The position numbers and the translations under genes are program-made. Below the pieces are notes generated by a model that searched no databases, was not told the DNA's origin, and was given only the letters and a program-made list of their open reading frames with translations. Shown in pieces: positions 41,503 through 50,710 of a DNA stretch of 52,556 nt; position 1 is the stretch's first letter; the number at the start of each line of letters is the position of its first letter. Source of the stretch: Candidatus Saccharimonadota bacterium (GTDB lineage Bacteria > Patescibacteriota > Saccharimonadia > Saccharimonadales > SZUA-47); NCBI GenBank assembly GCA_020428015.1, contig JAGQNQ010000002.1, positions 1-52,556 of the forward strand, in the 5' to 3' direction.

Positions 41503-42111
41503 TTAGCTCGCACATTTCTGGAACGCAGGCAGGTGATTGTCTTGAGACGCGTTCATGAGGTTCGTAAAGACACTTATGATATCAGGATATTCACTAACAG
41601 TTGGCAGTAGTTCATTTCTGTAAAGATCTGCGTTAGCAATCTCGGCCGCAACACCGACCGAACAGTTTTCAGCTTTTGTATTGGCGATGCTCACGCTGTC
41701 TATATATGAATTCCCCGGTATGTCCAGTCCGTATTTATCAAACAATGCCTTCAATGAGCTTATGTGCTGTTCTTCGGCGCGGATAATCATCGAGAAAGGA
41801 CGGATCTTCCCAAGCTTTGAAATAACTGCATCATAGGTAGCGTAGGCCTTGTACTCATCATCAAGGGCTTTGACTAGTGACTCTTGTACATTAGCCGGAA
41901 GTTCACCCGCAGGGTACTCAAGATTGTCTACCTGCAAGCACTCATCTGATACGCAGTTTTCTTTATTTATTTGGGCTTGGGTTTGCTGCTGACTTTGGTC
42001 TGTGGTCTGATCTTGAGAGCTGCTCGTATCTGAGTCTTCTTTTGAAGCTTGATAGGCGAGCAATCCCCCGACTAAAAATAATATTGCTAAGATAGTGATG
42101 GCTGTTTTCAT
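41503..42111 (-). CDS. secreted ferritin-like (DUF2202-type) protein
   Basis: Signal/TM segment, a Q/S/T-rich linker, then ALDDEYKAYATYDAVISKLG...IIRAEEQHISSL. Confidence 0.6.
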   Translation of the reverse strand: MKTAITILAILFLVGGLLAYQASKEDSDTSSSQDQTTDQSQQQTQAQINKENCVSDECLQVDNLEYPAGELPANVQESLVKALDDEYKAYATYDAVISKLGKIRPFSMIIRAEEQHISSLKALFDKYGLDIPGNSYIDSVSIANTKAENCSVGVAAEIANADLYRNELLPTVSEYPDIISVFTNLMNASQDNHLPAFQKCAS

Positions 42112-42251
42112 GATGTGTTTCCTTGTTTTACAACTCTATCATTCTATAAAAACCTGAAATTAATCTGAAAATTGCTTGATTTTTTACTGACTAGCAACAC
42201 AAGAGTGGATTCAGCCAGTAGAGAAGAATATAATAGAGTTAGCAAAAAAGG

Positions 42252-42851
42252 ATGCAGTTCATGCTAAAACAACAAAAAAACGAAGTATCATTTCCGCAAA
42301 TTTTAACTTTCGCGTCGTTTGTGGGATTAGTCGCATCATTCTGGCAGGCAGCAGAACGAGTGCATATGTTGAAGTATCCCGATCAACCTCTCAACTGTAA
42401 CATGAGTCCAGTTGTAGATTGTGGTGGCGTACTGAATGATCGCTTAGCAGCAGTATTTGGGCCTCCAAACGCACTGATTGGCATCGTAGTGTTTGCAATG
42501 TTGTTCGCGCTTGGCATCCAGCGTTTGCTGGGTGGAAGCTGGACGGTCGTTACGCGTAAAGTAGCTGTGTTCTTAACGACACTCATTATGGCGTTTAGCC
42601 TTTGGTTTTTCGGAGTTAGCTTATATATACTTGGCAAGATCTGTATTTTTTGCGTTTTTATCTGGGCTGCGAGCATGCCGATAGGTATTTACGGTGCTAG
42701 AGATTTTTTGAACAGCCTGAAAAAACCAACTGGAATCGTGCTTTGGAAGCGAGATATGCTAAATAAGTATCATTTCACGGTACTAGTCACCGTCTACGCA
42801 GTGATGATTTTATTATTTCTATTAAAATTCCAAGACTACTATTTTGGCTAA
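42252..42851 (+). CDS. vitamin K epoxide reductase (VKOR) family protein
   Basis: Loop cysteines CNMSPVVDC and active-site CIFC, with 5 TM helices. Confidence 0.75.
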   Translation: MQFMLKQQKNEVSFPQILTFASFVGLVASFWQAAERVHMLKYPDQPLNCNMSPVVDCGGVLNDRLAAVFGPPNALIGIVVFAMLFALGIQRLLGGSWTVVTRKVAVFLTTLIMAFSLWFFGVSLYILGKICIFCVFIWAASMPIGIYGARDFLNSLKKPTGIVLWKRDMLNKYHFTVLVTVYAVMILLFLLKFQDYYFG

Positions 42852-42858
42852 ATAATTG

Positions 42859-42885
42859 TTGGCACTCTATAGGCTAAAGTGCTAA
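42859..42885. promoter_or_regulatory. CIRCE-like operator upstream of dnaJ
   Basis: TTGGCACTC-tataggcta-AAGTGCTAA. Confidence 0.6.
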
Positions 42886-42969
42886 AATAACAGCATGTTA
42901 GATATACTAGACTTTTTAGGTTCTATTTTGCTAGAAGTCGTTCATTTTTTCGTGAGAAGAGAATCATAG

Positions 42970-44079
42970 ATGAACAAGCGAGATTACTATGAAGTTTTGG
43001 GTGTAGCTAAGGGTGCTTCTGACGACGAAATAAAAAAAGCTTTCAGACGGAAGGCCATTGAACTGCATCCCGACAAAGAAGGCGGTGATGAGGCCAAGTT
43101 CAAAGAAGTGAACGAAGCATACGAAGTGCTAAAAGATAGTGCTAAGCGTCAGCGTTATGATCAATTCGGCCATGCTGGTGTCGGCGGCTCAGGCGTCGGC
43201 GGCAATCCTTTTGAAGGCTTTAATTTTGGCGGTCAAGGTCACTCAGTCAACTTCGACTTTGATGATCTCGGTGGTTTCGGTGACTTGTTCGGTAGCTTTT
43301 TTGGTGGCGGTCAAGGACAACGACGATCAAAACGACCTGAACGTGGCCGCGACATAGAGATGGAGCTCGTGCTCGATTTTGAAGAAGCAATATTTGGTGT
43401 TGAAACAGAAGTGAAATTGAACCTGCACGATGTGTGTAGACACTGCAAGGGTACCACTGCGGAACCTGGCCATGAAGTTGTGACTTGCGAGACCTGCAAA
43501 GGGTCAGGTCAAGAAGTACGGGTAGCACAAACAATCTTTGGCAACATTCAACAGGCCGTGACTTGCAGCAAATGTCGAGGTAAGGGCAAGATTCCGGAGC
43601 AGAGGTGCAGTGTCTGCAATGGCGTTGGCGTAGAGCGTGTTGATAAAAACGTAAAGATTAAAATACCTGCTGGTATTGACGATGGAGCAACAATTCGTCT
43701 CGGGGGCTACGGCGAAGCAACCGCCAACGGCAATAAGGGTGATCTGTATGTACATATTCGCGTTAAACCACACAAAGAATTTACGCGCGAAGGCGACCTA
43801 GTGTTGAGTAAAGTTCATGTTGATATGGTTGATGCTGCCCTTGGAACGGAAATTAATGTCGATACAGTTGATGGTCCCGTAAAAATGAAAGTCCCTGCGG
43901 GTACACAGAGCGGTACCGATTTTAAATTATCAGGACACGGTGTTCCGCATATCAAAACCGGGACACGTGGAGCTCATATCGTCACGGTCAACGTAGATAC
44001 GCCAACGAAATTAAGCAAAAAACAGCAAGACTTACTTGAAGAATTTAAAGACCATAGGAAAAAGGGTTTCTTTAGTTAA
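42970..44079 (+). CDS. dnaJ: molecular chaperone DnaJ
   Basis: J-domain with HPD, a G/F-rich linker and four CxxCxG zinc-finger repeats. Confidence 0.95.
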   Translation: MNKRDYYEVLGVAKGASDDEIKKAFRRKAIELHPDKEGGDEAKFKEVNEAYEVLKDSAKRQRYDQFGHAGVGGSGVGGNPFEGFNFGGQGHSVNFDFDDLGGFGDLFGSFFGGGQGQRRSKRPERGRDIEMELVLDFEEAIFGVETEVKLNLHDVCRHCKGTTAEPGHEVVTCETCKGSGQEVRVAQTIFGNIQQAVTCSKCRGKGKIPEQRCSVCNGVGVERVDKNVKIKIPAGIDDGATIRLGGYGEATANGNKGDLYVHIRVKPHKEFTREGDLVLSKVHVDMVDAALGTEINVDTVDGPVKMKVPAGTQSGTDFKLSGHGVPHIKTGTRGAHIVTVNVDTPTKLSKKQQDLLEEFKDHRKKGFFS

Positions 44080-44117
44080 GCTTGCCAGTCTACCGAATAA
44101 GGCCTATCATAGAGCTA

Positions 44118-44228
44118 ATGTTTCGAAAGCGCCCGCAACAAGAAGGCTTTATTACGATGATAGTGATGATGATTCTTATTTTAGCTTTTTTTATTTTTCT
44201 TGCGTACAAGCGTGTCGCAGCAGGGTAA
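44118..44228 (+). CDS. possible 36-aa single-TM micropeptide
   Basis: My own reading gives MFRKRPQQEGFITMIVMMILILAFFIFLAYKRVAAG, a hydrophobic core flanked by basic residues. The RBS is weak, and a different frame is listed in the ORF track. Confidence 0.25.
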   Translation: MFRKRPQQEGFITMIVMMILILAFFIFLAYKRVAAG

Positions 44229-44250
44229 CGATTGAAAAGGAGTGCGGTGG

Positions 44251-45519
44251 GTGAGAAAGAAGGGTTTTACGCCGAAAGCTAGGGTTAGTCCTTCGAATGT
44301 TTATTTACGCGGCAAAACTGACTGGCGACAGAAACAAGCCGAATTATTTATAAGAGGCGAAATCGAAGTTCCTGAATATGACTATGAGCTGCTCCAGAAC
44401 TATGTACGCAAAGAACTGCTCAAAGATGTAGATGTCCTAACGGAGGATCTGAATCGTTTGGTTATGCACAAGGCGTCATCGGCACTAGAGGAAACTGTTA
44501 ATCTCCTTCAAAAGCACAAAATTGAACAGGAGATCGTTGAGCGCTATTTGCTTAGAGCTGCAGCAGAGCTGCTCGCGGACCCTGGGTCAGAAGGACTGTT
44601 AAATGCGTATATACGGAGAAATATTGAGGTATACGGTGAGTATGATGTGAATTTATCTCGGCAGGTTATACAAGGATCGTTGGCTAAAGATTTAGAAAAC
44701 GATTATCGAGACACTATAGAGTTCTACCGATCGGTTGCGAGGAGAAAGTTCTACCCTTTATTGAGCTTGTTAGACAATCTCAGAGACGATGAACGTGTCA
44801 ATGCAGAAAGAGCCACGGAACTTATAAATAATTATCTGCACGCTAGAGGGCTATCGCAGCTCGGCTGGATAGCTAGCATTAGTCCGGAGGCTATTATCGT
44901 ACATACTAAATATCGTACACGCGAAATAGTAATACCAAAAAATTTCGATAGGACCGTCTCACAACTGAGAAGACTTATGGTACATGAGGTGGAAGCACAC
45001 GCAGCTCGCTATGAGCATGGTTTAGACGAGAAATTTCCTATAGTTGCCACTGGAACGGTTTCGTCAAAAAAAATAAATGAAGGCCTTGGTATATTTCTTG
45101 AACTGTTGATTGATCAAAGTCCTGTGAGCGAGCACCCAGCACTTAGGCGTGCGTTGCACCGATATGCTGCTCTTTGCTTCGCACTTGATACAAGTGAAGA
45201 TACAACTTCTACAAAACATATTTTTAAGCAATTATTCAAGTTTATGCATGACGAAGAGTTTAATGAGAAAAAGCACGCGGGCCCCTCGATTAGTAAAGAA
45301 GCACTTGAAACATATGCCGTGTTTGATAATGTGTATCGAGGAAGTGACTTTCGACATCCAAAAGCTGTATATATGAGAGGAAAAAACTATCTCGAAGGCC
45401 TTATTGCCGTGTTGACGTATCTATCAGAAGCAGAATTACATGAGTCTACTTTTGATCTGATGTTTAGAGGAACAATTGATTTCACATCTAGACTTGAGCG
45501 TTCGATGCTTGATCTATGA
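44251..45519 (+). CDS. DUF1704-family (MATCAP-like, QEGLA-motif) putative metallocarboxypeptidase
   Basis: HEVEAH (an HExxxH motif) followed by INEGLGIFLE, a QEGLA-like motif. I prefer the GTG at 44251 (aaggag RBS 8 nt upstream) over 44242. Confidence 0.7.
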   Translation: MRKKGFTPKARVSPSNVYLRGKTDWRQKQAELFIRGEIEVPEYDYELLQNYVRKELLKDVDVLTEDLNRLVMHKASSALEETVNLLQKHKIEQEIVERYLLRAAAELLADPGSEGLLNAYIRRNIEVYGEYDVNLSRQVIQGSLAKDLENDYRDTIEFYRSVARRKFYPLLSLLDNLRDDERVNAERATELINNYLHARGLSQLGWIASISPEAIIVHTKYRTREIVIPKNFDRTVSQLRRLMVHEVEAHAARYEHGLDEKFPIVATGTVSSKKINEGLGIFLELLIDQSPVSEHPALRRALHRYAALCFALDTSEDTTSTKHIFKQLFKFMHDEEFNEKKHAGPSISKEALETYAVFDNVYRGSDFRHPKAVYMRGKNYLEGLIAVLTYLSEAELHESTFDLMFRGTIDFTSRLERSMLDL

Positions 45520-46740
45520 TTGGGTGACAACAAAAACTTGACTGTTTACAAACTCTAGGTCGTTTTCAAACTGTTTAGCATCTTCATTATGTAGACATAT
45601 TACACAGGCAGCTTTATAACCATCAGCAGATTTTCCTGCTATATCACCAGGCTTGTACTTTATCGAAATATAGTTCAAAGACGGCAAACTTCGTAGCGAT
45701 TCCTCATTTTCTACATGAGAAAAAACTCCCGTCTTTTTTGGAAAGAGCTCCAAGACTGCGCAGGGCTCGTCTTTTTTCGCAGCAATATCAAGGGTACTGT
45801 CTGTTATTGCAAGGAACAAGTTATCATAGATGTCTATTCCCTGTGCCAATTTATGCATTCTTTCTCGATAGCCACCATTTCTTGCGCCGATTTCTACAAC
45901 TCGTGGTCCATCTTCGGTTACGATTATCTCTACGTGTGCCGCGCAGTTTTTCATCCCAAGTGACTTAATAGCAATCTCTGCTGTTTCGATAAAATCCTTT
46001 TGCGTATCGCTAGAAAGTTTTGACGGGAGTATTCTGCTGTAGTGAAAATTATCATCGTAACCTATATCATAGCCTGTTTGGTAGTCGACAATATGCGGAA
46101 GTACAGTCGGGTTGCCCTTGCCGTCAACGAATGCGTCCACAGAATGGATTGATCCTTCCAAGAACTCTTCAACCAATACAATTCTTTCGTTATGGGGTGC
46201 ATATTTCTGATAGACTGGCTCGATTTTTTCGAGCATCTTTTTGTATGTTCTCAAAAGCTCCTCAACAGTATTATTTCTTGTAACTAATAAGCTTTTGGCT
46301 AAGTTTGCTGGTTTTAGTATGAGAGGAAACGAATGCGTATTTGCAAATGCTTTGAGATCAGATTCTGATTCCACAACTTGAAATTGCGGGCTAATCTTTC
46401 TCGGTGCGTTTGCAAAAAGTGTTCTCATAATGGACTTGTTGGTGCAGGCCCTAGCGGCATCGACAGGAAGTCCATTTATCGAAAGTTTTTCAGCTATTTC
46501 TGCAGTTATCAAAATGTATTGTTCGTATAGTGTGACCGTCGCATCGAAAGGGTTTTTTTCGTGTTCGTGAGCAACAGCGTCAAAAACCAACTCCTTTTTT
46601 GAAAAATCTACATGCTTGGTATTGGTATCAGTATCTGCGTGATTTTGAGTAGAGTCCTTGAAAAGTACAAAATCTACATTTTTTTCAGCCATGTACTTCC
46701 TAAGTCCACTGAAGTTTTTACCGATAATCGCTATTCTCAT
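45514..46740 (-). CDS. ATP-grasp domain ligase (L-amino-acid-ligase-like)
   Basis: FPLILKPANLAKS...VLVEEFLEGSIHSVDAFV...AHVEIIVTEDGPRVVEIGARNGG. Confidence 0.75.
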   Translation of the reverse strand: MRIAIIGKNFSGLRKYMAEKNVDFVLFKDSTQNHADTDTNTKHVDFSKKELVFDAVAHEHEKNPFDATVTLYEQYILITAEIAEKLSINGLPVDAARACTNKSIMRTLFANAPRKISPQFQVVESESDLKAFANTHSFPLILKPANLAKSLLVTRNNTVEELLRTYKKMLEKIEPVYQKYAPHNERIVLVEEFLEGSIHSVDAFVDGKGNPTVLPHIVDYQTGYDIGYDDNFHYSRILPSKLSSDTQKDFIETAEIAIKSLGMKNCAAHVEIIVTEDGPRVVEIGARNGGYRERMHKLAQGIDIYDNLFLAITDSTLDIAAKKDEPCAVLELFPKKTGVFSHVENEESLRSLPSLNYISIKYKPGDIAGKSADGYKAACVICLHNEDAKQFENDLEFVNSQVFVVTQS

Positions 46741-46817
46741 GGTGGACTAGTATAATGGAATAGGCTGTGAAGACAGATATTGTAAAAAAATTATAATTGT
46801 GATATAATAAACTGAAT

Positions 46818-47300
46818 ATGGCGAAGTATAAATCAATTATCGGTCGTTTCGAACCAACTACTTTTCCCCAGCATCTTTTAAGCGATGTTCCAGCAAAGAT
46901 TGATACAGGTGCTAGCATTTCTTCCATACATGCTGTGGATGTTCGCGAAGAGAAGAGGAATAATAAGACAGTACTAAGATTCACTTTGCTTGGTTCACAT
47001 GCATCCTATGACTATTGTCGGGATATTGAGATTGAAAAGTATTCAAAAAAAACAATAGAAAATTCGTTTGGACATTCTGAAAAAAGGTACATGGTTACAC
47101 TGAAAGTCAAAGTTGCGAACAAGGTGTTTAACGCAAAGTTTACCCTGGCGGATCGTTCGAAAAAAGCATTTCCTATATTATTAGGCCGGGAGATGTTAAG
47201 CAGGCGCTTTATCGTCGATACATCAATTAATAATGTTAATCGCAAGTATCTTGAGGCTCGAATGCCCCGCGTGTTAAAAGAAGATTTAGACGAAGATTAG
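46818..47300 (+). CDS. retropepsin-like aspartic protease (COG4067/DUF785, RimB-like)
   Basis: KIDTGASISSIHA (D-T-G-A motif) and ILLGREML. It lies immediately upstream of rimK. Confidence 0.7.
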   Translation: MAKYKSIIGRFEPTTFPQHLLSDVPAKIDTGASISSIHAVDVREEKRNNKTVLRFTLLGSHASYDYCRDIEIEKYSKKTIENSFGHSEKRYMVTLKVKVANKVFNAKFTLADRSKKAFPILLGREMLSRRFIVDTSINNVNRKYLEARMPRVLKEDLDED

Positions 47301-47309
47301 GAGCTTTTC

Positions 47310-48221
47310 ATGAAGATCGCGATTTTATCAAATGGACCAGGGAACTACTCTACGAAACGCCTTAAAGAGGAGTTTAAACTTCGCGGGCATGAAGTAGACA
47401 TTATTAAGTATAAAGACTGTTTTGCGTCCATCGAGTCCAGTAACCCAGAGGTACGGTATCATGGGGAAGTCCTGAGTGGATACGATGTTATTATTCCAAG
47501 AATTGCCAGCAGTATGACGAGGTATGGTACGGCGATTGTTCGTCAATTTGAAATGCAAGGTGTGTTCACAACGGCGAGCTCGATTGCAATAACTCGCTCA
47601 AGAGATAAATTGCGCAGCCTCCAGCTTTTAGCTCGTGCGGGAGTCGGTATTCCGAAAACTGTTTTTACGCGTGACGGGCGAGAGATTGATGATCTTATTG
47701 ATGAGCTCGGAGAACTACCGGTTATTATCAAATTAGCCCGTGGAACTCACGGTAACGGTGTCGTTTTGGCAGAGACTAAAAAGGCTGCTAAGAGTGTAAT
47801 GCAAGCTTTTCATGTTATGGATGATGATGGGACGAACATCCTGATGCAAGAGTTTATCAAAGAATCAGCAGGTGAAGATATTCGTGTATTTATTGTAAAT
47901 GGTAAAGTTGTCGCGAGTATGAAGCGTAAAGGACTTGATGATGATTTCCGTTCTAACTTACACCAGGGCGGAGAGGGAACAGTCGTTAGGCTAACCGACG
48001 AAGAGCGAAAGGCAGCTCAAAAAGCAGCTAAGTCGATGGGCCTGCCAATTTGTGGCGTAGACATAATGCGATCTGCAAGGGGCCCCTTAGTTCTGGAAGT
48101 TAACTCAAGCCCAGGGTTTGGCATAGAAAAAGTGACAGGGCGGAACGTGGCGGCTAAAATAGTAGAGTATGTCGAACAGACCGCCAAAAAAACTCGAAGA
48201 CGTGACCGCGTCGGCGCCTAG
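47310..48221 (+). CDS. rimK: RimK-family alpha-L-glutamate ligase
   Basis: MKIAILS...PVIIKLARGTHGNGVVLAE...DIRVFIVNGKVVASMKR...GVDIMRSARGPLVLEVNSSPG. Confidence 0.9.
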   Translation: MKIAILSNGPGNYSTKRLKEEFKLRGHEVDIIKYKDCFASIESSNPEVRYHGEVLSGYDVIIPRIASSMTRYGTAIVRQFEMQGVFTTASSIAITRSRDKLRSLQLLARAGVGIPKTVFTRDGREIDDLIDELGELPVIIKLARGTHGNGVVLAETKKAAKSVMQAFHVMDDDGTNILMQEFIKESAGEDIRVFIVNGKVVASMKRKGLDDDFRSNLHQGGEGTVVRLTDEERKAAQKAAKSMGLPICGVDIMRSARGPLVLEVNSSPGFGIEKVTGRNVAAKIVEYVEQTAKKTRRRDRVGA

Positions 48222-48663
48222 CCGGTTTTTACTGTTTAGTACTTTTCTGGGTCTTTTAACAATTTTTTCGTATGTATCGCTGCAGTCTAGATCATCGGGC
48301 CTGTTTGTTCAAACACCAAGGCAAACACTTAGAGTCGAGGTAGCAGATACCCCAGAAGAGCGAAGAGTTGGCCTTTCTGGTCGACAGTTACTTGCTGAAA
48401 ACAAAGGTATGTTATTTGTTTTTGAGGAAGGTGGTGCGACGTGTTTCTGGATGAAGGATACGTATATTTCACTTGATATGATCTGGATGGACGAAAATAA
48501 ACAAGTAGTATACATCTACGAACACGCAACCCCAGAATCCGAAAAGCCCATTTGTCCAAATCAACGAGCTACGTTTGTCCTTGAGGTGAACGGAGGCTCT
48601 GCACGGCAGTACGGGATTGAAAAAGGCACATCACTGAAGTACAAAAAGAGTCCTCTAGAGTAG
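48169..48663 (+). CDS. DUF192-domain protein with an N-terminal membrane anchor
   Basis: VEVADTPEERRVGLSGR...GMLFVF...MKDTYISLDMIWMD...VLEVNGG. The start is uncertain (ATG at 48169 or GTG at 48202), and either overlaps the end of rimK. Confidence 0.7.
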   Translation: MSNRPPKKLEDVTASAPSRFLLFSTFLGLLTIFSYVSLQSRSSGLFVQTPRQTLRVEVADTPEERRVGLSGRQLLAENKGMLFVFEEGGATCFWMKDTYISLDMIWMDENKQVVYIYEHATPESEKPICPNQRATFVLEVNGGSARQYGIEKGTSLKYKKSPLE

Positions 48664-48675
48664 CATACAAATTGC

Positions 48676-49173
48676 TTGTGCTACACTGAAGTTATGACTG
48701 CGCTTATCATGTCCGGAATTGTACTGCTTGGACTACCTCTTTTACTACTTTTTTGGTTTAAAACAAATGCTGGAGTCATGTTTCTTGCAGCATGTGCCGG
48801 TCTTGTCCTACTGAGTAGCCTAGACCCTGTCGTTGTTTCAGCAGCAGGTGCATTTGTACCACATGAAGGTGAGGCGTACGTACGTCTTATTGTTGTTCTA
48901 TTATCTATTATTTTTGCGGCAATGATGTTTAAGCATTCGGTAAAAAGTGGCTATCTATACCTTCATGTTCTGCTTGCTTTACTGACAGCGGTGATGTTAT
49001 GGCTGTTGCTCCCGAGCGTAACTGGAGTAAGCTGGCTTTTGGACAATTCTAAAGAAGCAATATGGCAAAACGTGAACGAGTATCGAACGCTCATTGTTGC
49101 TGCGGGCTTTTCACTAAGTCTTTTAGCAGTACTCACAAAAGCAAGTCATCATTCAGGTAAAGCAAAACATTGA
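48676..49173 (+). CDS. hypothetical membrane protein (about 5 TM helices)
   Basis: Hydrophobic 165-aa ORF. The start may be the ATG at 48694. Confidence 0.4.
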   Translation: MCYTEVMTALIMSGIVLLGLPLLLLFWFKTNAGVMFLAACAGLVLLSSLDPVVVSAAGAFVPHEGEAYVRLIVVLLSIIFAAMMFKHSVKSGYLYLHVLLALLTAVMLWLLLPSVTGVSWLLDNSKEAIWQNVNEYRTLIVAAGFSLSLLAVLTKASHHSGKAKH

Positions 49174-49198
49174 CTTTTTATCTGTTAACAGGTAGAAT
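49170..49198 (+). promoter_or_regulatory. sigma70-type promoter of tRNA-Lys
   Basis: TTGACT (49170-49175), a 17-nt spacer, then TAGAAT (49193-49198). Confidence 0.55.
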
Positions 49199-49221
49199 AT
49201 ACCTCTGTTAACCTAAAAAAC

Positions 49222-49298
49222 GGGACCATAGCTCAGCTGGTTAGAGCACCTGCCTTTTAAGCAGGGTGTCCTGGGTTCAAGTCCCAGTGGTCCCTCCA
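49222..49298 (+). tRNA. tRNA-Lys (UUU)
   Basis: GGGACCATAGCTCAGCTGGTTAGAGCACCTGCCTTTTAAGCAGGGTGTCCTGGGTTCAAGTCCCAGTGGTCCCTCCA. It folds into a clean cloverleaf with an encoded CCA. Confidence 0.95.
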
Positions 49299-49299
49299 A

Positions 49300-49482
49300 A
49301 GAATGGCCACCCTTCAGGGGTGGTTTTTCTTTGGATTGTCTCCTGAAACTTACCTAAAAGGGCACCTTGAGTGTCCTGCTGGCGAAGAAGTTCTGCGAAC
49401 TTCTGAGTTTTCCTTGCTTGGCCGAGCATATGCTTTAGCTTTTTGCGAGCAGAAAAGGCGCAAGTCCCAGTGGTCCCTCCAA
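49300..49482 (+). repeat. 183-nt non-coding unit ending in a 22-nt perfect copy of the tRNA-Lys 3' end
   Basis: Positions 49461-49482 equal 49278-49299. It contains a terminator (49305-49329) and the GGCGAA-hairpin-TGAG-nnn-TCCTTGCTTGGCCGAGC module (49381-49428) shared with the fMet array. Confidence 0.7.
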
Positions 49483-49485
49483 TAA

Positions 49486-49516
49486 AAAGTCCAACTCGGA
49501 AGTTGGATTTTTTTTA
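49486..49516. terminator. bidirectional rho-independent terminator (for the tRNA-Lys unit and nhaA)
   Basis: TCCAACT-CGGA-AGTTGGA (49490-49507) is flanked by an A-run and a T-run. Confidence 0.7.
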
Positions 49517-50710
49517 TTTTACAGTCCTGCTTTTGACTGTCCGCAAAATAAACACGCCTATAATAGACGACAAAATAGATGCAGTGAACACCCCAGCGAT
49601 GGCTGCATCACGCAATGCATGGTTTTCAAAGGACAAATCTGCAATTAGCAGAGACACCGTAAACCCGATTCCGGCTAGAAAGCCAACGCCTAATAGCTGC
49701 GTCCAGGTAAAGCCAGCTGGTTTCCTGGAAAGACCCAGTAAGTTAGATACAAAGCTTGCTGCAAAAATACCGACTGGTTTTCCAATGAGTAATCCTCCGG
49801 TTACTCCAGCAAATACGTTCAGGCTGCTGCCGCTTTCAAGTGAAAGATCGGACAGACGTAGACCTGCATTCGCAAAAACAAAAAGAGGGACAATGATATA
49901 CGCGGTTAATGGCAGAAGTATATCTTCAACTTTTTCTGAAGACTGTAGATGAGTCGCGTTTTTCCGCGATGTAACCAGCGGAGCGAGCACGGCTAGAATA
50001 ACCCCCGTCATTGTTCCCGATATACCCGCGAGGGTAAAACAATACCAAAGGATAAAACCAAGCACTCCAAAAATAACTAACCAGTTGCGTTGCCTTCTGA
50101 ACAGAACGAGAAACATAATAACCGTGAACGCGGCGATAAGAGCGAAGGCGTTTTCTGGGTGGTTAAAGAATAGTCCAATAATAATGATGGAGCCAATATC
50201 GTCGATAATTGCGAGCGCTAAAAGAAAAATTCGAAGGCTTCGGGGAATCCGCTTACCGATCAGCCCAAGCACGCCAATAGCGATAGCGATGTCGGTTGCA
50301 ATAGGTACCGCCCAGCCATTACTTTCAGGCGCATATTGATTTATGCTGGTATAGATGAGCGCAGGCAGCAGCATGCCGCCGACTGCGGCTGTTACCGGAA
50401 AAGAAGCTTTACGCCAACTTCGAAGCTCTCCGTCGATAAGTTCACGCTTGACCTCGAGCGTGACGACGAGAAAGAAAAGCGACATCAGCCCCTCACTAAT
50501 CCAATGTTTTACGTCAAGAGATACACCTCCTAGACTTATTTTGTTATGGATGAATGATTGATATAAATCGTTGAAGTTTGTGTTACTTAAAACAAATGCA
50601 GTAGTCGCTGCAATTAGGAGTAGCGAGCCACTCCGTCGTTCTTCGTGAAGAAGAAAGCTCAGAATGTTACGAGGAAGCGTAATTGCTGAATGCCGCTTAT
50701 GCTTTGTCAT
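49514..50710 (-). CDS. nhaA: Na+/H+ antiporter NhaA
   Basis: 398 aa with about 12 TM helices. LAIIDDIGSIIII matches the NhaA DD motif region. Confidence 0.9.
   Translation of the reverse strand: MTKHKRHSAITLPRNILSFLLHEERRSGSLLLIAATTAFVLSNTNFNDLYQSFIHNKISLGGVSLDVKHWISEGLMSLFFLVVTLEVKRELIDGELRSWRKASFPVTAAVGGMLLPALIYTSINQYAPESNGWAVPIATDIAIAIGVLGLIGKRIPRSLRIFLLALAIIDDIGSIIIIGLFFNHPENAFALIAAFTVIMFLVLFRRQRNWLVIFGVLGFILWYCFTLAGISGTMTGVILAVLAPLVTSRKNATHLQSSEKVEDILLPLTAYIIVPLFVFANAGLRLSDLSLESGSSLNVFAGVTGGLLIGKPVGIFAASFVSNLLGLSRKPAGFTWTQLLGVGFLAGIGFTVSLLIADLSFENHALRDAAIAGVFTASILSSIIGVFILRTVKSRTVK

Follow-up and report, generated by a model that had tools for sequence, protein, structure and literature searches.

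The RimK/RimB Locus of a Saccharibacteria Genome: a Putative Alpha-Polyglutamylation Module with a MATCAP-Like Peptidase and an L-Amino-Acid-Ligase-Type Enzyme

Introduction

The locus described here encodes the alpha-L-glutamate ligase RimK and the retropepsin-like protease RimB together with two further enzymes, a MATCAP-like metallopeptidase of the family DUF1704 and an ATP-grasp enzyme of the L-amino-acid-ligase type, hereafter the second ligase. It lies on a stretch of 52,556 nucleotides (contig JAGQNQ010000002.1 of assembly GCA_020428015.1), referred to as the window, which is contig 22 of a source genome of 915,796 bp (97% complete). Related loci come nearly all from metagenome-assembled genomes of Saccharibacteria/Saccharimonadia, and the host is therefore a reduced genome of the candidate phyla radiation (CPR), belonging to the Saccharibacteria. 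An earlier note, made from the letters of the DNA, had proposed that this cluster is a writer/eraser module for C-terminal amino-acid tails. The open reading frames (ORFs) that it listed are all present where it placed them, and the families that it read from motifs (DUF1704, ATP-grasp, retropepsin-like, RimK, and DUF192) are borne out by Pfam.

RimB, RimK, and Ribosomal Protein S6

The core of the locus is formed by rimB and rimK, both on the forward strand, the former ending 9 nt before the start of the latter. RimB (46818..47300) is a RimB-like retropepsin aspartic endopeptidase (PF05618, 77.1 bits), in agreement with the DTGA retropepsin-like protein previously noticed at this place; it carries the motif IDTGAS (D29-T30-G31), and no N-terminal hydrophobic signal peptide is seen in it by eye. 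Its score against the RimB equivalog NF052261 is 71.7 bits, below the cut-off of 200, and that against RloA3 is nearly equal (70.5 bits). RimK (47310..48221) contains the RimK_N (119.1 bits) and RimK (196.7 bits) domains and scores above the cut-off of TIGR00768 (261.6 vs. 143.4 bits), which upholds its first identification; with PRK10446 it reaches 322.3 bits (cut-off 331). RimK enzymes extend a C-terminal Glu with alpha-linked glutamates. To our knowledge, polyglutamylation is established for just two bacterial proteins, and cleavage of such Glu runs has been shown for no bacterial enzymes other than retropepsins of the RimB/RloA type.

The ribosomal protein S6 of the source genome, whose C-terminus the earlier note had singled out for inspection, ends in ...DAEEDDEDESDDEE, that is, in -DDEE with nine of its last ten residues acidic, and is compatible with a RimK substrate. 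An EE ending is found in just nine of 1057 non-overlapping ORFs; of all tails in the genome that end in Glu, that of S6 is by a wide margin the most acidic. The DUF192 protein, the membrane protein, and the micropeptide of the locus were also considered as tail targets and rejected, their C-termini not being acidic. Elsewhere in the genome, an L25/Ctc-like ribosomal protein (C55:27171-27821, +) has an acidic tail (...EVKEAE) and is encoded about 5 kb from a further ATP-grasp gene outside the window (C55:20805-22127, -), which matches the RimK-like paralogue of the relatives (E = 2.7e-15).

Several variants of RimB have been observed among the relatives. The RimB proteins encoded beside close orthologues of the second ligase (L034-L051) have a common C-terminal extension, NR[VI]ELKKQYGIxFPxDEEE, which could be a docking site, a substrate tail, or a mere lineage trait; the RimB of the window ends (47230-47300) in ...LKEDLDED. 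Hybrids of 444 aa consisting of RimB and a RimK-like domain, and followed by a separate full RimK, are found in three loci (L023:5935-7269, L027:4800-6146, and L029:1597-2928) and resemble previously described RimBK hybrids (PMC11957791).

The MATCAP-Like Peptidase

Upstream of these genes, at 44251..45519 on the forward strand, lies the gene of the MATCAP/DUF1704-like gluzincin, a putative carboxypeptidase. Its frame is open from GTG 44242, and GTG 44251 is the more plausible start because the sequence AAGGAG at 44237-44242 overlaps the earlier GTG. The motifs HEVEAH (residues 248-253) and NEGLG (residues 279-283), by which the protein had first been assigned to DUF1704, are present, and PF08014 scores above its cut-off (37.6 vs. 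27 bits). The same profile is matched by all 47 aligned homologues, in which H248, E249, H253, E280, and G281 are invariant, and the family profile aligns to human MATCAP (7z5g) at HEIGTH...EEGLA. An AlphaFold2 model, built from an alignment of 17 sequences, has a predicted local distance difference test score of 87.6, and its five top fold matches in the PDB are human MATCAP (7z5g the best of them; probability 1.0; target template modeling (TM) score 0.50-0.54), followed by DUF885 and M32 metallocarboxypeptidase.

The protein is nonetheless far from its known relatives. It falls outside the narrow QEGLA equivalog TIGR02421 (28.8 bits; cut-off 338.65), and a word-index homologue search with it gave no match. 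When 1.84 billion representatives were scanned in full with HMMER, just 171 proteins came up at E ≤ 1e-3, the closest of them 34% identical once one 97%-identical fragment (P0001) from another sample is set aside. Taken together, the PF08014 match, the metal-site residues, and the fold match of the predicted structure identify it as a bona fide, distant, and very divergent member of the MATCAP superfamily of gluzincins. An origin by transfer from elsewhere was considered, given that it is just 26% identical to a same-genus copy; in the tree, however, it groups with its orthologues from the same genus and family (91/98 support), on a long branch, and the xenologue explanation was rejected.

The Second Ligase

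The gene at 45514..46740 lies on the reverse strand, overlaps the stop of the DUF1704 gene by 6 bp, tail to tail, as had been noticed before, and diverges from rimB. Its product has an ATP-grasp_4 core (PF13535, 72.7 bits) and a LAL_C2 match below the cut-off (PF18603, 24.4 bits; cut-off 29.4). Among solved structures, the product is most similar in sequence to the L-amino-acid ligases BL00235 (PDB 3vot, E = 7e-19) and BacD (PDB 3vmm, E = 2e-16), and hundreds of CPR homologues with 50-64% identity exist. The 77 bp between the divergent second ligase and rimB (46741..46817) contain promoter-like hexamers on both strands.

As just two of 19 DUF1704-centered loci have it, the second ligase might be taken for a chance insert. 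This explanation is ruled out by its orthologues, since 18 of 19 in the order sample described below (E ≤ 1e-55) stand head-to-head with rimB-rimK, an arrangement also found in each locus reached independently via its homologues. Its other neighbor always lies tail to tail with it, often overlapping by a few bases, and varies in identity from locus to locus: it is a MATCAP-like gene in the window, in L054, in L145 (which holds the closest relative of the second ligase, also with a convergent MATCAP-like gene), and in L034 (there via an S51 gene), and elsewhere a RimK-like paralogue, or dnaJ/the micropeptide. Because the head-to-head arrangement is nearly constant while the other neighbor varies, the second ligase reads, by its genomic context, as an accessory of rimB-rimK and not of DUF1704 as such. 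In several relatives a Peptidase_S51 gene (dipeptidase E/cyanophycinase family) lies directly 3' of, or near, the second ligase (L034:7253-8035, L042:2780-3547, and L036:9364-10128), and this neighbor hints that the product of the second ligase contains Asp.

Linkage and Turnover in the Order and Phylum

The association of these genes was followed in 201 genomes evenly drawn from the order. Of these, 168 have RimK, at 64-90% identity, and 44 match the DUF1704 profile. In the 43 DUF1704-positive genomes other than the source genome, the distance between rimK and DUF1704 was compared from listed coordinates: the two genes are on one contig in 26, and in 23 of these 26 they are at most 6 kb apart, in genomes of about 0.9 Mb; the remainder comprises six genomes with the genes on different contigs, four without RimK, and seven in which the place of RimK is unlisted. 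One genome has only a 109-aa DUF1704 remnant, which lies beside rimK. The order dnaJ > DUF1704 > rimB > rimK > DUF192 (> membrane protein), all on one strand, recurs in most of the 15 independent loci found via the DUF1704 subfamily, with gaps of 0-66 nt between DUF1704 and rimB, and the linkage to rimK has been kept although identity among the DUF1704 proteins has dropped to about 25%. The linkage of DUF1704, ligases, and rimK is thus far beyond chance, and DUF1704 is an old but dispensable companion of rimB-rimK.

Within genus and family, the frame of the locus is constant (dnaJ and the micropeptide on the left, DUF192 and the membrane protein on the right), and the content between them changes. 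In two other genera the slot contains rimB-rimK alone, in one same-genus case DUF1704-rimB, and in three same-genus genomes, all without RimK, between two and four ATP-grasp genes of the RimK-like or L-amino-acid-ligase-like kind, in some cases joined by an FGase-family amidohydrolase; a RimK match at E ≤ 1e-20 is found in none of four same-genus genomes. This is a rapid turnover of cassettes within one genus. The ATP-grasp sets differ among L110, L113, and L114 (same-genus genomes G004, G001, and G002) in the slot matching 44242-48221 of the window, and G002 also has the FGase-family amidohydrolase. RimK-less genomes of the order often retain L-amino-acid-ligase-like and RimK-like ligases beside DUF192. 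Another occupant of the DUF1704 position, next to a RimK-like ligase, is a 590-aa protein with a HELTH motif and no Pfam match (L038:8126-9898, -), of which homologous fragments occur in L055 and L057; judged by its motif, it may be another zincin peptidase.

Across the phylum, 401 genomes were surveyed for PF08014; it occurs in 72 of them, whereas 14 control genomes all lack it. Among the best 30 PF08014 loci in the phylum, 21 encode a fusion of ligase and MATCAP of about 770-840 aa, four have a separate ligase gene directly upstream, two have an adjoining RimK-like ligase, and three have no ligase in the short stretch examined. P0140 (799 aa), for example, is a fusion of ATPgrasp_ST and MATCAP, and the fusions that were checked combine ATPgrasp_ST/TIGR02291 with MATCAP/TIGR02421 by both Pfam and NCBIfam. 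The fusion in L130 contains, in addition, a RimB-like domain (PF05618, 33 bits) between ligase and MATCAP and in this way unites in one polypeptide three kinds of enzyme for each of which the window has a gene of its own. Synteny cannot explain such fusions, and they argue for a joint function of ligase, retropepsin, and MATCAP. The earlier note had asked how often DUF1704 co-occurs with ATP-grasp and RimK genes; this linkage is very strong in the order and across the phylum, where it is mostly realized by fusion.

Flanking Genes and Boundaries

The left anchor of the locus is dnaJ (42970..44079, +; TIGR02349, 415 bits), which precedes the cluster in almost all relatives. It is followed by a promoter-like site at 44082-44110 and by the ORF of a 36-aa micropeptide (44118..44228, +; MFRKRPQQEGFITMIVMMILILAFFIFLAYKRVAAG), predicted to be a single-helix membrane peptide. 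This ORF, which the earlier note had given as possible, is conserved and hence real: 16 distinct homologues are found by phmmer (E about 1e-11), all inside the locus, between dnaJ and rimB, either right after the former or right before the latter, and the gene is called in L146. The peptide has a basic N-terminus, followed by GF[IF]TMI, a hydrophobic run, and AY.RV; its N-terminus bears a loose likeness to a prepilin leader but is without Glu at +5. The number of promoter-like sites overall is not above the shuffled expectation, so that individual sites, including those at 46741..46817, are suggestive at most.

On the right, rimK overlaps the gene of a DUF192 protein with an N-terminal membrane anchor (48169..48663, +; PF02643, 107.8 bits vs. 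a cut-off of 27), a partner of the locus that is kept even in rimK-less relatives. Next comes a 165-aa multi-pass membrane protein (48676..49173, +), which has no Pfam or NCBIfam match, always follows DUF192 in the relatives, also in RimK-less genomes, and has a His/Lys-rich C-terminus in all homologues (...SHHSGKAKH, ...SKHKSKKH). The right boundary of the cluster is formed by a tRNA gene and a terminator-like hairpin (49222..49325, +; Rfam tRNA, 72.4 bits), the hairpin being strong, with a T run, at 49305-49325, 3' of the tRNA gene. The Rfam search returned nothing besides tRNAs.

Proposed Function and Alternative Explanations

The reading that we favor, with moderate confidence, is that the locus is a RimK/RimB alpha-polyglutamylation module of Saccharibacteria with two accessory enzymes, in which the MATCAP-like protein would act as the exopeptidase. 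RimB is an endopeptidase that cleaves Glu tails and needs at least 5-6 contiguous Glu (PMC11957791), while eukaryotic MATCAP/TMCP enzymes take residues off the C-terminus step by step and reduce the length of polyglutamate chains (PMC10499314). Because of this difference, the MATCAP-like enzyme would do what RimB cannot: it could trim short Glu tails, or the oligo-Glu released by RimB, beyond the reach of the latter, and such trimming would reset the target and recycle glutamate. In the source genome the most likely target would be ribosomal protein S6. The second ligase, as a dedicated accessory of rimB-rimK, would probably supply or extend a peptide, either a free di- or oligopeptide or a different residue on the same tail, and DUF192 and the 165-aa membrane protein are probably co-transcribed as well as co-inherited partners. 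The tail writer/eraser module that was first proposed is supported in part: the linkage, the fusions, the -DDEE end of S6, and the known activities of the families speak in its favor; less well supported are the second ligase as a writer and the tracking of S6 with RimK.

Several observations weigh against this reading. BL00235 and BacD ligate free amino acids, not protein ends; the second ligase had been described as a second tail writer, of which the ATP-grasp gene stands and the tail writing was a guess that its solved relatives do not bear out. DUF1704 is missing from most RimK-positive genomes and is hence dispensable, and in the window the opposite-strand ligase splits it from rimB-rimK and leaves it outside their operon. 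The match to the MATCAP fold is moderate (TM 0.5, root mean square deviation 9 Å), and the DUF1704 protein of the window carries N at residue 279, a position taken by E in at least 90% of homologues. Its branch measures 6.6 substitutions per site against 0.7-1.0 in the sister orthologues (about sevenfold), a length that could reflect relaxed constraint or a changed function. Finally, S6 tracks RimK weakly: it ends in EE in 16 of 27 RimK-positive vs. six of 13 RimK-negative genomes, and in some RimK-positive genomes it ends in -KRR, -EER, or -DEA. Because S6 endings fit RimK poorly across the order, it may be that the target is not the same in every lineage, or that a free peptide is the product.

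The last option leads to the alternative that survives best, which we regard as possible but on the whole improbable. It holds that what is made and recycled here is not an S6 tail but an acidic peptide or polymer in free form (poly-alpha-glutamate, or mixed Asp/Glu): the ligases would polymerize, RimB and the MATCAP-like protein would degrade, and handling of the product at the membrane would fall to DUF192 and the basic-tailed membrane protein. RimK has indeed been shown to form free poly-alpha-Glu, a reaction stimulated by RimB (PMC11957791), and free polyglutamate has been raised as a possible substrate in the Rlo system (PMC12239564). Apart from the poor correlation of S6 endings with RimK, this explanation draws on the persistent linkage of DUF192 and the 165-aa membrane protein to ATP-grasp ligases where RimK is absent, and on the Peptidase_S51 and FGase-family amidohydrolase genes that occupy the same slot in relatives. 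On the other hand, S6 of the source genome has a textbook acidic -EE end, no recognizable exporter or polymer-anchoring protein is encoded, and DUF192 is without known function. The free product and the S6 tail are not mutually exclusive.

An unlikely explanation, which concerns the window alone, is that its DUF1704 protein has been decaying or has acquired a new function since the second ligase came between it and rimB, so that it no longer serves the RimK module. The very long terminal branch inside a supported clade of same-genus and same-family orthologues would be accounted for in this way, and so would its low identity to them (24-27%), its length (about 55-75 aa shorter), and the replacement of the near-invariant E279. 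Decay sits badly, however, with a frame that is open over 425 codons, with the conservation of four invariant catalytic/metal residues, with the 97%-identical fragment in another sample, and with L145, in which a MATCAP-like gene likewise converges on the closest relative of the second ligase. Because frame, catalytic residues, and a confidently predicted fold are intact, a functional protein is favored.

Least probable, and in our judgment slight, is the explanation that the linkage reflects inherited gene order and nothing else, in which case a recombination-prone slot after dnaJ would have taken up DUF1704 and the second ligase with functions unrelated to RimK/RimB: gene order is generally conserved in the order (dnaJ to the left, DUF192 and the following genes to the right), slot content changes even within one genus, and relatives are non-independent samples, but the slot is filled almost solely by ATP-grasp ligases and peptidases/amidohydrolases, ligase/retropepsin-like/MATCAP fusions occur in other classes of the phylum, and the linkage outlasts the divergence of DUF1704.

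Biological Significance

If the polyglutamylation reading is true, the module has a second, exo-acting eraser from the same family as the enzyme that trims animal tubulin tails, and the pairing or fusion of MATCAP with ATP-grasp ligases across Patescibacteria suggests a prokaryotic precedent for the eukaryotic ligase/MATCAP pair. The modification is probably important for these symbionts, because RimK is kept in most Saccharibacteria genomes of about 0.8-1 Mb. A broader conjecture, to which we give rather little credence, is that the interval from dnaJ and the micropeptide to DUF192 and the membrane protein is a fast-changing cassette site where ATP-grasp ligases (RimK, RimK-like, and L-amino-acid-ligase-type) and matching peptidases (RimB, MATCAP-like, S51, and FGase-like) are swapped. 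In that case every lineage would have a C-terminal tail or peptide product of its own to write and erase, with targets beyond S6, in a prokaryotic "tail code" that might be the ancestral setting of the tubulin ligase/MATCAP pair.

Comparison with Known Systems

The closest known system is RimA-RimB-RimK of Pseudomonas (PMC4741518; PMC7343187; PMC11957791), together with RimK of E. coli. Adjacent rimB-rimK genes, a RimK_N ligase, a cytoplasmic DTG retropepsin, and an S6 protein ending in acidic -EE are common to Pseudomonas and the source genome. In contrast to Pseudomonas, the cluster is without RimA (EAL), no EAL domain being matched in any ORF at 41503-50710; it adds the MATCAP-like metallopeptidase, the L-amino-acid-ligase-type enzyme, DUF192, the membrane protein, and the micropeptide; and its host is a CPR bacterium with a 0.9 Mb genome, from an order that has RimK near-universally.

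Another parallel is the eukaryotic tubulin tail cycle, in which TTL/TTLL ligases are opposed by MATCAP/TMCP (KIAA0895L, 7z5g; PMC10499314). Here, too, an ATP-grasp ligase that attaches residues to C-termini is paired with a MATCAP-fold gluzincin, and the motif HExxxH...EEGL is held in common. The differences are considerable: identity is about 14% and TM 0.5, the organism is without tubulin, a ribosomal protein or a free peptide is the probable target, and the genes are clustered, or fused in relatives.

A link to the Rlo system (RloA retropepsin, RloB, and RloC ATP-grasp; PMC12239564) is given by the CPR fusions, which score for TIGR02291, RloA-like, and TIGR02421 together, and the DUF1704 protein of the window is a distant member of the TIGR02421 superfamily. 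Unlike in Rlo, the ligase of the window is a true RimK and not of the RloC type, the retropepsin is without a signal peptide, and there is no RloB-like transglutaminase-7TM protein. According to TIGRFAMs, TIGR02421 neighbors TIGR02291 in Proteobacteria. The second ligase, for its part, shares the ATP-grasp_4 core with the L-amino acid ligases BL00235 and BacD, but the similarity is low, LAL_C2 is sub-threshold, and its context is a protein-tail module instead of an antibiotic or dipeptide pathway.

In the literature searched, no paper joins MATCAP with RimK or ATP-grasp, or Saccharibacteria with RimK, nothing pertinent came up on DUF1704 or QEGLA proteins, and the Rlo paper (PMC12239564) mentions neither MATCAP nor DUF1704. 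The core of the locus is the known RimK/RimB system minus RimA, and what is new is the addition of a MATCAP-like peptidase and an L-amino-acid-ligase-type enzyme.

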